Virus record (IMG/VR): IMGVR_UViG_2703719389_000008
DNA: 9,301 nt
Strand: one strand, 5' to 3'
Source: a virus
Taxonomy: Duplodnaviria; Heunggongvirae; Uroviricota; Caudoviricetes
The notes below the pieces were generated by a model. That model saw only the letters and a list, made by a program, of their open reading frames with translations, was not told where the DNA came from and made no database searches. Below are positions 2,480-5,278 of this stretch, piece after piece (positions within the stretch are counted from its first letter, which is position 1; the number at the start of each line of letters is the position of its first letter). A program made the position numbers and the translations under genes.

Positions 2480-5278
2480 TCAGGCACCGTGACATTTTTT
2501 GTACTTTATTCCCGAGCCACAGGGGCATTGTTCATTCCGGCCGACCGCACCAAAAACTTCAGTTAATTTAGTCTTTGCTGCTTTATGGGCAAGCTGTACG
2601 ATGTAATTTGATTGATTTTGGATTTCTTGACGCTGTACACCTGTGAGGCCTTCGATATAGGGAGCAAGGCGCTGCATTTCGACATCAGCTGCTTTATGCT
2701 GACCCGATAGTGCTAATATGACTGCGTATTGGCTTCGAACCTGAATCAGTCGATGTACTAGACCTGCCTCATTGACAACCGGCAGGACATGTTGCTCCAT
2801 GACTTCCTTGGCACCGTCGTAATCCTTTATGGCAACAAACTCATCCGCCAGATCTTGGCCCACCCTGACCATGGATTCCGGGGCCATGGCCAGATTGTAG
2901 AACTTCATCGAATGAATACGCAGTAATGGTGACAGTTTTCCCTGCGCATCACGAATTCTGGCCAGCAACTCCAGAGCATCAGCCATATGTTTAAAGTGTT
3001 CCTGCATATTTTCGGAATGATTAATAGTTTTCCATAATGCGTCGGCGTTTTTTCCTATGACATCAGCAGGTGTGATACCAAATAAAGAATAGTACCCTTG
3101 TATAACATTACAGCTTAATGTTTCAGCATCCTTGAGTTTTTTTAATCTCCAGAGTGCAATGGCATGGTTGTAGTCAAAGATGCGTTTATGTTCTTCATCT
3201 GGGAGTTGGGGGCGGACTTCCTGTGCCAGCTTTTGAACTTCTCGTGCATCATTGCTTTCTGCCGAAAATAACATTCGTTTCATTGCATAGGCCATCTCTT
3301 CTTGATAGCCGAACTTGTGCTCCGCAAGTAAAGCTCCCATGATGTTTAACCTCTGAGCAATGTGGTCGGATATTCCGTCTTTAAGCTCAACGAAAACAAG
3401 GCCATCCAATGCCCAGAATTTATGAACAGGTCCCAATAAGTCCGATGTTGCAGCACGCTCCAAGCTTGCAAGAATGTCGACCGTCACGCCCATCTCATAA
3501 AACATTTCTTGGCCTGAGAGTTCGATCAACGTCGTGACATCATTGAGCTTAATATAAAGTTGAGTCAACAACGATAACCGTTTTGTATTGCGGGTATTAT
3601 GAAGACTTTCAACTAAAAGGTCTTTCAGCGCTAGTAGCGCTTTGTTCGATATACCCTGATCCATCAGTTCCAGATGTTGCAGTCCTAGCCCCCTGACAGC
3701 ATCATGTACCTTCAGGGTCTGGTTTCCATAAATTTCAATAGTGCCAGTAGCGCGCATTTTCCTAATTAAAGAAGCAGCACTGCTTGGTGAAATGTTCAGC
3801 GAATTGATTAGGAGCGTAGAAATCTCTTCGCGACTCAGCCCTACGTCAGAGAGACTGAACAATGCCAGCGCGCTCTGAAGTAGTGATTCAAATCCCTGAA
3901 ATACACGTGACAGAATAATTTCTTGGGCGGTTTCCGCAGTATGGGTTTGTTGCTGGAGTTCAGCACACAGAGCATCGACATTACGCTCATAATCAGAAAC
4001 GGCGATTTTTGCGGCGCTCTCTACATACAGGGGAAGACCACCAGTGTAAGCCCGTAGCTGCTCGTATCCCATAGCGGTGGCAAATCCTCCGATATCGTTT
4101 ACAACGACAGCTACCGTATCGAGATTCCATCCCTGCAGGCCCTCGCGCTGTAGCCCCGTCATGACCTCCAGTTCGCGAACGTTTTCGTGAGGCTGGCACA
4201 ACAGCACAAAACGAATATGTGTAGTTGCATTCAGAACATCCAGTAGATTTTCCGCAGGTACACGATGGGCGTTATCCAGAACCAGCACCAAGGTGGTACC
4301 CTGCTCTTTCAGGTAGGTATCAAAACTCCTAAGAGCCTCAAAACCACTGGCACCGGGGAGCAAAATCCTGCGCAAACCGTCTTGGTCACGGGCTGTAAAT
4401 CTAGCAGCCATCTCGCGCACCAGCGTACTGGCCAGAGCTGGACCGGGAAGATCACCGGTGTCGTAATAAGCACAAAGTGCAGTGGAGTGTAATGCGGCCT
4501 GTGCGGCCCAAGCTGTCTTGCCTGCACCTGAGAGTCCACAAAGGATACGGATCCGCTCACCAGATGTGAGAGAAGGTTCTTCGTTCTGTGGGCGGTACAG
4601 TGCTGGTGGTGCAGGAAAGTCCTGTAGCTGAACGATCAACTGTTCAAATAGTTCAGTAAGTTCTTCCGTGAAAAACGTATGTTGTCCATTGGTATCGCCT
4701 CCGGTGGCGGCAAGCTGAACCAATCCTGCTAACTTCCAAATCAAGGATTCTGGGGACAATAGTGAAAATTTCAGCTTTTCTGCTTCTGCGATACACCATG
4801 TGGCCGCATCAGCCAGAGTACTCCATGCGGGCGGAAGTGCCGGGTGACGTCCAGCTGTCGACTGGGGCCAGACAATAAGAACATCAGAAGGAAGCTTTTT
4901 ATCGTCAATCATCTTCTGAAGCAGCGGTCCAGGCGCCTGGTTTACAATAATCACAAAAGAAGCCACCCCTTCGCGGTTTGCCGAAGTATGCTCATTTCTG
5001 AGCTTTACAAATCGCTCCAGAGCCCCCGACACATCGTTGGGCATAATAGGTTTTGAACGGGTTTTAACCTGAATGTAGAGACGTTCCTGTTTGGATTTCA
5101 GCTCAATATCCTCATCAAGCTCGACAGTTACTGAGTCCATAGCTGCCCTCTGCGCCAAAAGTAAGCAGCCTACAGCGTAAAGATGCTGGTAAAGGAACCC
5201 CCGGTGTACCGCTTCGATACGCACCAACTGCACAGGATCCAGTACGTCCAGATTTTGTTTGTTTTCACTTCCCCACAT
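2480..5278 (-). CDS. Large multidomain protein (932 aa): PD-(D/E)xK-like nuclease motif, STAND (NB-ARC-like) P-loop NTPase, TPR-like helical repeats, C-terminal SEC-C zinc ribbon; candidate NLR-like antiviral sensor
   Basis: Uninterrupted 2.8-kb ORF with AAGGAA RBS 6 nt upstream of ATG 5278. Walker A GLSGAGKT (nt 4514..4537, verified by translation), Walker B LVLVLDN (4271..4291, verified), GGLPL (about 4028..4042), VHD (aa 524-526), N-terminal D57...Q70-V-K72 (about 5063..5122), C-terminal [13 protein letters not shown] (2489..2527). Confidence 0.85.
   Translation of the reverse strand: [932 protein letters not shown]

Follow-up and report, generated by a model that had tools for sequence, protein, structure and literature searches.

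Antiviral STAND proteins of the Avs type read most of the core phage proteome. A recent survey of prokaryotic STAND proteins recognised at least 90 defence-associated sensor clusters, gave the names Avs7-24, and found that SeAvs7 incorporates the abundant host translation factor EF-Tu, enhancing defence (Lee et al., Nature 2026, PMC13581612). A separate body of work concerns SecA's small C-terminal metal-binding domain (MBD), which binds SecB and ribosomes; fused to SUMO, the isolated MBD sediments together with 70S ribosomes and can be cross-linked to uL23, close to the exit tunnel, and cysteine modification abolishes this ribosome binding (Jamshad 2019). SecA-like MBDs co-purify with iron, a conserved Ser contributing to the iron preference, and Ser889 and Tyr893 of SecA belong to the conserved residues of these domains (Cranford-Smith et al.). 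A near-identical MBD occurs on the unrelated protein AscA/YecA, whose binding to SecB and ribosomes depends on the MBD; the authors propose that the domain is a portable toolkit, present in at least 18 protein types (AscA preprint). Both subjects bear on the locus described here, a 9,301-nucleotide stretch of Caudoviricetes DNA (IMG/VR record IMGVR_UViG_2703719389_000008; the window, below), whose one long open reading frame (ORF), on the minus strand at 2480..5278, encodes an Avs-like protein of 932 residues that very probably ends in an MBD of the SecA type.

Family and motif are each known. The gene is identical in DNA sequence (100%) to that of RefSeq WP_000264572.1, 'SEC-C metal-binding domain-containing protein', a name by which automated annotation already flags the combination. 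Its NTPase domain (residues 227-435) agrees at 207 of 209 positions with seed 193 in Table S1 of the Lee et al. preprint supplement (WP_021564393.1, Escherichia; PMC13581612), and the family is therefore already part of the field's STAND seed set. The words 'SEC-C', 'SecA' and 'zinc' are absent from the main text of Lee et al. 2026 (PMC13581612), as is 'SEC-C' from the accessible part of the preprint supplement; Kaur et al. 2020 do not mention SEC-C, and a full-text literature search returned no paper linking it to Avs or antiviral STAND proteins. The original prediction, made from the DNA alone, had described the combination as unfamiliar among described Avs families, which holds for the papers found but not for the annotation record, given the RefSeq name and the near-identity to seed 193. 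No paper found by the search discusses what the tail does in an immune sensor.

The C-terminal tail and the protein that carries it

The protein ends in the pattern C-x-C-x8-C-H, and the span 2489-2527 originally assigned to this motif corresponds exactly to the codons of its four ligands, C918, C920, C929 and H930. The Pfam SEC-C profile (PF02810), proposed beforehand as the check on the assignment, matches residues 914-931 with 38.8 bits (E 8e-10) against a gathering score of 20.4 bits, so the assignment stands. A phmmer search of all PDB sequences returns zinc-binding-domain peptides of SecA (1sx0/1sx1, 1ozb and 1tm6) together with the C-terminal peptide of YchJ (9l6b_C). The tail and the solved E. 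coli SecA domain (1sx0) have 16 of 20 residues in common, the GRN and K-Y/F-K-K residues among them, and S922 and Y926 stand where SecA has Ser889 and Tyr893; across the family S922 and the four ligands are 96-100% conserved, and position 926 is Y or F. The NCBIfam models of the AscA/YecA and YchJ families also match the tail region, which bears the basic residues R914, K925, K927 and K928. From the protein's own content of 10 Cys and 27 His, the ligand pattern would be expected by chance about 3e-5 times per protein. It is thus highly probable that the tail is a genuine SecA-type MBD, predicted from its ligands to bind zinc or iron. The term 'zinc ribbon' used for it initially was loose, the SecA-type MBD being a domain of about 20 residues that may bind iron in vivo.

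The body of the protein is likewise recognisable. Pfam AAA_22 matches residues 239-364 (32.6 bits, cut-off 27), AAA_16 is matched as well, and Cap4_nuclease matches residues 25-77 just over its cut-off (27.1 against 26.2 bits). In an alignment of 53 diverse homologues, down to 27% identity, D55, D57, G251, G253, K254 and D335 are invariant and E59, Q70 and K72 nearly so; judged by sequence, these residues correspond to a putative PD-(D/E)xK nuclease site and to the Walker A and B motifs. In an AlphaFold2 model built with 33 homologues (mean pLDDT 79.6) the N-terminal domain is alpha/beta and is followed by a P-loop domain and, at about 541-909, by helices only, those of the solenoid lying mostly at pLDDT 80-96. 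Beyond the helix at 880-909 the chain is coil, with pLDDT of 62 to 37 across the last 40 residues. Foldseek searches against the PDB place the STAND-TPR crystal structure 6mfv first (E 1e-13) and the terminase-bound SeAvs3 structure 8dgc second (E 1.6e-12); plant NLR resistosomes come next, with Cap4 (6wan) lower in the ranking. The Pfam, AlphaFold2 and Foldseek results therefore identify a STAND protein with a TPR-like sensor and the architecture of Cap4-armed Avs proteins, which bears out the earlier description of the host protein, its C-terminal half consisting of helical repeats; the winged-helix or helical domain placed at about 436-540 is a provisional assignment.

With a central STAND P-loop NTPase, an N-terminal immune-type effector and a large C-terminal repeat sensor, the protein has the domain plan of an Avs in the broad sense. 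A PADLOC scan gave partial matches, to LmuA, DUF4297 and HamA on the nuclease part and to E2 and PDC-S12 on the tail part, and the family profile, searched against PDB sequences, matched only SecA and YchJ peptides and no solved Avs sequence. Membership of a named Avs family was rejected because no Avs, PD-lambda or bNACHT model of PADLOC and no solved Avs sequence matches; the protein is accordingly termed Avs-like rather than given an Avs number, a label taken from architecture and fold.

Conservation, loss and exchange of the tail

An ending of the form VGRNExCPCGSGxK[YF]KKCHG is present in 108 of the 120 closest homologues (49-99% identity), the tailed proteins coming from Enterobacterales, Vibrio, Shewanella, Aeromonas, Pseudomonas and Alteromonas, and four of the twelve exceptions are visibly truncated or frameshifted. 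Across 113 full-length sequences the mean column entropy of the tail (residues 912-931) is 0.51, compared with 1.10 for the whole protein, which places the tail among the best conserved stretches of the family at roughly half the whole-protein entropy. The linker that precedes it (residues 896-911) is the most variable of the segments compared, with a mean entropy of 2.53, and is hypervariable in both sequence and length.

A profile search over 1.84 billion representatives extends the family to at least 391 clusters at E values up to 1e-30. The 104 full-length cluster representatives include 34 with the CH form of the tail, 33 with a CC form, one C-G-C variant and 36 with no tail; on a rough neighbour-joining tree these states are scattered, requiring about 28 changes by parsimony. 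The survey of homologues suggested in the original prediction thus yields strong constraint where the tail is kept and its absence from 36 of 104 representatives. A decayed tail 3' of the tail-less genes was considered and rejected, no remnant being present downstream of them. Three tail-less representatives (P0152, P0244 and P0245) end in polybasic segments, with 13-14 K/R in the last 25 residues, and in one tail-less subclade the C-terminus is a conserved NPPPPQW[QE]MP motif. The best 80 genome loci are almost wholly from three classes of Proteobacteria; the exceptions are two Sporomusa genomes and a Desulfobacula metagenome-assembled genome (MAG), all with the tail, and a tail-less copy in a Bifidobacterium MAG.

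At 13 tail-less loci with the NPPPPQW[QE]MP ending an ORF of 128-184 residues (typically about 151) lies about 11-120 nt downstream on the opposite strand, convergent with the family gene. Its product is also found as a domain fused after SEC-C in a 1103-residue representative (P0143, residues about 960-1103; 42% identity, E 2e-36). Neither the convergent ORF nor the fused domain has a Pfam or NCBIfam match, and the protein of about 151 residues may act on the sensor's C-terminus as partner or regulator.

The tail also recurs on unrelated proteins of mobile elements. When the 81-nt tail-coding DNA was compared with 5,426 E. coli genomes, the matches listed were confined to the STAND family, a further two SEC-C proteins and, at a weak level, one gene of the YecA family. 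Host secA is not among them, and recent capture of the tail from secA was rejected on that ground. About 68 genomes carry a second clade of the STAND family, at 80-90% DNA identity to the query, and, of the loci inspected, two hold 5'-truncated remnants beside an AlbA-domain gene on an integrase-bearing island. A 101-residue 'SEC-C' ORF and a 351-residue 'YecA family protein' were for this reason rejected as independent architectures, the name 'YecA family' being an annotation artefact of the shared tail. An integrative and conjugative element with trbJ/trbL in the E. coli EcPF16 chromosome encodes two adjacent large proteins, both ending in significant SEC-C matches: a NERD nuclease-related protein of 716 residues and a 778-residue protein with no other Pfam domain. 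The pair is flanked by PIN, HigA and two DUF262 genes and may be an uncharacterised two-gene defence candidate. The PADLOC models E2/E1-E2 and PDC-S12 include the SEC-C motif as well, and its recurrence on unrelated mobile-element proteins points to a shared external partner.

Possible functions of the tail

The reading preferred here, to which we give about an even chance, takes the protein for an Avs-like sensor of Cap4-STAND-TPR build, with a tail that, by docking on SecB and/or the ribosome, serves as an accessory module for localisation or for a co-factor. The gene would then encode a single-protein, bacterial NLR-like anti-phage sensor carried as cargo of a lambdoid prophage. If SeAvs3 and SeAvs7 are a guide, a phage protein would be bound by the TPR-like solenoid, the STAND NTPase would then oligomerise, and the Cap4 nuclease domains, once assembled, would cleave DNA. 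The MBD, at the end of a flexible, fast-evolving linker, would form an accessory docking knob that keeps the sensor attached to a plentiful component of the host, the SecB chaperone or, close to its exit tunnel, the ribosome; both partners have been demonstrated for the same module in SecA and AscA/YecA. Docking would put the sensor where phage proteins are made, or would recruit a host co-factor as SeAvs7 does with EF-Tu. Tethering is the most plausible role for the tail, since transplanted SecA-like MBDs endow their new carriers with binding to SecB and ribosomes.

Several observations weigh against this reading. Losses or swaps, many of them independent, have left about a third of the family clusters without the tail, and the tail-less genes are intact, retain the TPR-like body and lie in defence-like neighbourhoods too; since they are intact, in such neighbourhoods and free of tail remnants, the tail is not needed for core function. 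In the E. coli clade a hydrophobic residue occupies position 924, the equivalent of SecA Lys891. AlphaFold2 gives pLDDT below 50 at 925-932, within the tail, though this is expected for a metal-dependent knob and is uninformative. No PADLOC 2.0 profile for Avs1-Avs5, PD-lambda-4 (Avs8) or bNACHT matches the 932-residue protein, and the literature search found no experiment on it. The family's restriction to Proteobacteria is suggestive, but may reflect only the range of horizontal transfer. Absence of the tail from about a third of clusters, its many independent losses and the retention of the TPR-like body bear equally on the trigger-recognition role that had been offered alongside tethering, which is the less supported of the two; the tail is probably not the trigger sensor. 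A tail that is constrained when present, yet dispensable and exchangeable, fits an accessory targeting or tuning module better than a primary trigger sensor.

The C-terminal tail of SecA has a direct lipid-binding role, and the MBD-like tail could similarly bind a polyanion in place of a protein, either DNA or RNA, which would guide the nuclease, or the anionic lipids of the membrane where phage DNA enters. This is unlikely. In its favour, the tail is strongly basic (R914, K925, K927, K928), three tail-less representatives have polybasic tails instead, YchJ, which has SecA-like domains, is reported to bind promoter DNA, and Cranford-Smith et al. mention membrane binding by SecA. A generic polyanion binder, however, needs neither the GRN residues nor the CPCGSG spacing nor Y/F926, all of which match SecB- and ribosome-binding MBDs residue for residue, and the DNA-binding surface of YchJ is not assigned to its C-terminal MBD. 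Somewhat more doubtful is a role within the protein itself, in which the tail would be an autoinhibitory latch on the NTPase or nuclease, or would bridge protomers after activation. SecA provides the precedent, its tail and MBD being autoinhibitory and their removal having opposing effects on SecA activities. Set against this, AlphaFold2 offers no confident packing of the tail, a fixed contact within the molecule does not usually go with a linker so variable in sequence and length, the frequent clean losses, which come without compensating changes, speak against a latch that is essential, and near-identity to the tails of SecA, YecA and YchJ, on unrelated proteins, favours a shared external partner.

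Integrated decoys are known in plant NLRs, and the STAND/NLR architecture permits the analogy: a tail so close to the host SecA MBD could act as an integrated decoy of the SecA C-terminus, the sensor being triggered by a phage protein that targets the SecA-SecB or ribosome interface. The lack of secA among the listed matches to the tail DNA suits this idea in that the tail would be maintained independently and is no recent copy. It is nonetheless highly improbable, as no phage factor targeting the SecA MBD was found, the same tail on unrelated non-STAND proteins is left unexplained, and tail-less relatives keep the large TPR sensor, which implies that recognition lies there. Least probable in our estimate is a cysteine or iron site that senses redox state or metal and tunes activity when infection perturbs either. 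The iron that co-purifies with SecA-like MBDs, the contribution of the conserved Ser to iron preference and the reported response of YchJ to reactive oxygen species are compatible with such a site; the redox switch of YchJ, however, is assigned to dimerisation through Cys149 and not to the MBD ligands, and no link leads from phage infection to the site.

Docking on SecB or the ribosome, if correct, admits a broader and distinctly more tentative extension: the SEC-C knob might be a general, modular 'address tag' of NLR-like sensors and mobile defence nucleases, stationing them on the ribosome exit site or SecB to survey nascent phage proteins or to use the chaperone as co-receptor, and interchangeable with polybasic or proline-rich tails. 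A widespread Avs-like family carries a 20-residue module for which docking, to SecB and to the exit region of the ribosome, is all that has been demonstrated; with it one can ask cheaply and directly whether bacterial innate immunity is tuned by tethering in space or by co-option of host factors. Natural variants supply the comparison material, with CH, CC, absent, polybasic and proline-rich endings and a fused domain of 150 residues. Should the tail prove irrelevant to defence, the protein would be one more Cap4-STAND-TPR member with a decorative motif.

Genomic setting and relation to known systems

Of 5,426 complete E. coli genomes, 16 carry DNA that covers the gene at 99.1-100% identity. 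The copy of strain Z1322HEC0003 belongs to a lambdoid prophage integrated by tRNA-Ser/mtfA and stands between the replication and early regulation genes DUF977, YdaT and YdaS on one side and hokD, DUF968, RusA and Q on the other, and Pfam hits on the window's own ORFs agree with this setting. Matches in IMG/VR are mainly this same E. coli prophage allele, and sequenced phages rarely carry the family, with only two metagenomic contigs that have relatives, at 34-39% identity. In Vibrio cholerae the homologue adjoins OLD-TOPRIM and UvrD-helicase genes, AbiH (two genes upstream) and a PIN protein. The Pseudomonas homologue sits on a metal-resistance island (L003-L006), followed about 60 nt downstream on the same strand by AbiH. 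The presence of AbiH near homologues may be a recurrent association or the crowding of defence islands. Tail-less relatives adjoin AAA_13, Abi_C and DUF3800 genes. No conserved partner gene was identified for the window allele, its neighbours differing among E. coli, Vibrio and Pseudomonas; a conserved neighbour occurs in one tail-less subclade only. The 89 loci analysed contain no SEC-C ORF other than the family gene itself. This prophage and defence-island setting is typical of a stand-alone defence gene.

Some further details of the DNA are recorded here and in Table 1. Directly upstream of the STAND gene, DUF977 is broken into a pair of overlapping ORFs, and RefSeq marks it as frameshifted in an identical genome. 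Downstream, the stretch at 2300-2456 matches hok/sok regions of Stx and other lambdoid phages. The first part of the window holds a 1062-bp direct duplication that repeats the 5' part of DUF968 and a small upstream ORF, with the rem gene between the copies; alignments to the best complete E. coli genomes give nothing but collapsed pieces over a span of about 1.66 kb, so the arrangement was not observed there. A scan for promoters and terminators around the gene gave fewer sites than expected by chance and is uninformative. In IMG/VR contig 2541047694_000003 the match to the 2.8-kb gene is spread over about 4 kb at 99% identity, which suggests interruption by an insertion.

Table 1. Coordinates of the window features, followed by those of features at other loci (L numbers)
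Feature	Position	Strand	Basis or remark
Whole gene, 932 residues plus stop: Cap4 nuclease, STAND NTPase, TPR-like sensor, SEC-C tail	2480..5278	-	ORF list; Pfam SEC-C, AAA_22 and Cap4_nuclease over cut-offs
Probable SecA-type MBD (SEC-C), residues 912-931	2486..2545	-	Pfam 38.8 bits; 16/20 identity to 1sx0; entropy 0.51
Predicted ligands C918; C920; C929; H930	2525-2527; 2519-2521; 2492-2494; 2489-2491	-	Codon arithmetic
Hypervariable linker from last sensor helix to MBD, residues 896-911	2546..2593	-	Top entropy, 2.53; AlphaFold2 coil
All-helical TPR-like solenoid, presumed sensor, residues about 541-895	2594..3658	-	AlphaFold2 helices; Foldseek to STAND-TPR 6mfv, SeAvs3 8dgc and many TPR proteins
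Putative helical/winged-helix region from NTPase to sensor, residues about 436-540	3659..3973	-	AlphaFold2 helices, hairpin 514-524; placed relative to NTPase boundaries of Lee et al.
STAND P-loop NTPase, residues 227-435	3974..4600	-	Pfam AAA_22 and AAA_16; invariant residues; match to seed 193
Walker A, GLSGAGKT, residues 248-255	4514-4537	-	Within STAND NTPase
Walker B, LVLD, D335	4274-4276 (D335)	-	Within STAND NTPase
Cap4-type PD-(D/E)xK nuclease, N-terminal, presumed effector, residues about 20-135 (D55, D57 ... Q70-x-K72)	4874..5221	-	Pfam, PADLOC, Foldseek
Hok/Gef family toxin gene, hokD-like	2047-2259	-	81 bits; immediately downstream of STAND gene
Match to hok/sok regions	2300-2456
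DUF977 gene, split	5522-5930	-	Directly upstream of STAND gene
Direct duplication, 1062 bp	1-2008
Repeat copies	166-465 and 1228-1527; 54-nt copies at 1, 407, 1469
rem gene	884-1135	-	Between the duplication copies
Loci with the convergent ORF	L038, L040, L043, L048, L050, L053, L055, L057, L059, L063, L070, L073, L078		Tail-less NPPPPQW[QE]MP subclade
5'-truncated remnants	L091:5770-6075; L092:5020-6075		E. coli S43, 101 residues; 74-2, 351 residues
NERD nuclease-related protein, 716 residues; protein of 778 residues	L090:3913-6063; L090:6437-8773		Each ends in SEC-C; E. coli EcPF16
AbiH near Vibrio cholerae homologue	L002:2465-3424
Gene match in IMG/VR contig 2541047694_000003	L101:6001-10049

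Among described systems, Avs3 and Avs7 (SeAvs3, 8DGC; SeAvs7) resemble the 932-residue protein in overall plan, a single chain that has an N-terminal Cap4 nuclease, a STAND NTPase and a TPR-like sensor. The present protein is about half their size and has no sequence-level match to a solved Avs, and no SEC-C tail is mentioned for those families. SEC-C motifs do occur on other proteins of mobile defence loci, namely lactococcal Rugutis, PADLOC E2/E1-E2, PDC-S12 and the NERD-SEC-C protein of the integrative and conjugative element, all with unrelated bodies; in Rugutis the motif is N-terminal, and in none of them does it have an assigned function. AscA/YecA (UPF0149) and YchJ (UPF0225) share with the tail the use of the MBD as a portable C-terminal module, on bodies again unrelated to the 932-residue protein and with chaperone- or transcription-related rather than immune roles. 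The closest likeness of the tail itself is to the C-terminal MBD of SecA (E. coli residues 878-899; 1SX0/1SX1, 1TM6, and 1OZB, the H. influenzae SecA peptide crystallised with SecB), with which it has in common the ligands, the Ser and the aromatic residue, GRN and K-Y-K, a position at the extreme C-terminus and a poorly conserved, flexible linker before it. It departs from SecA at the equivalent of Lys891, which is Ile, Val or Leu in the enterobacterial clade of the family, and in its carrier, an immune-type STAND nuclease in place of a translocation ATPase.

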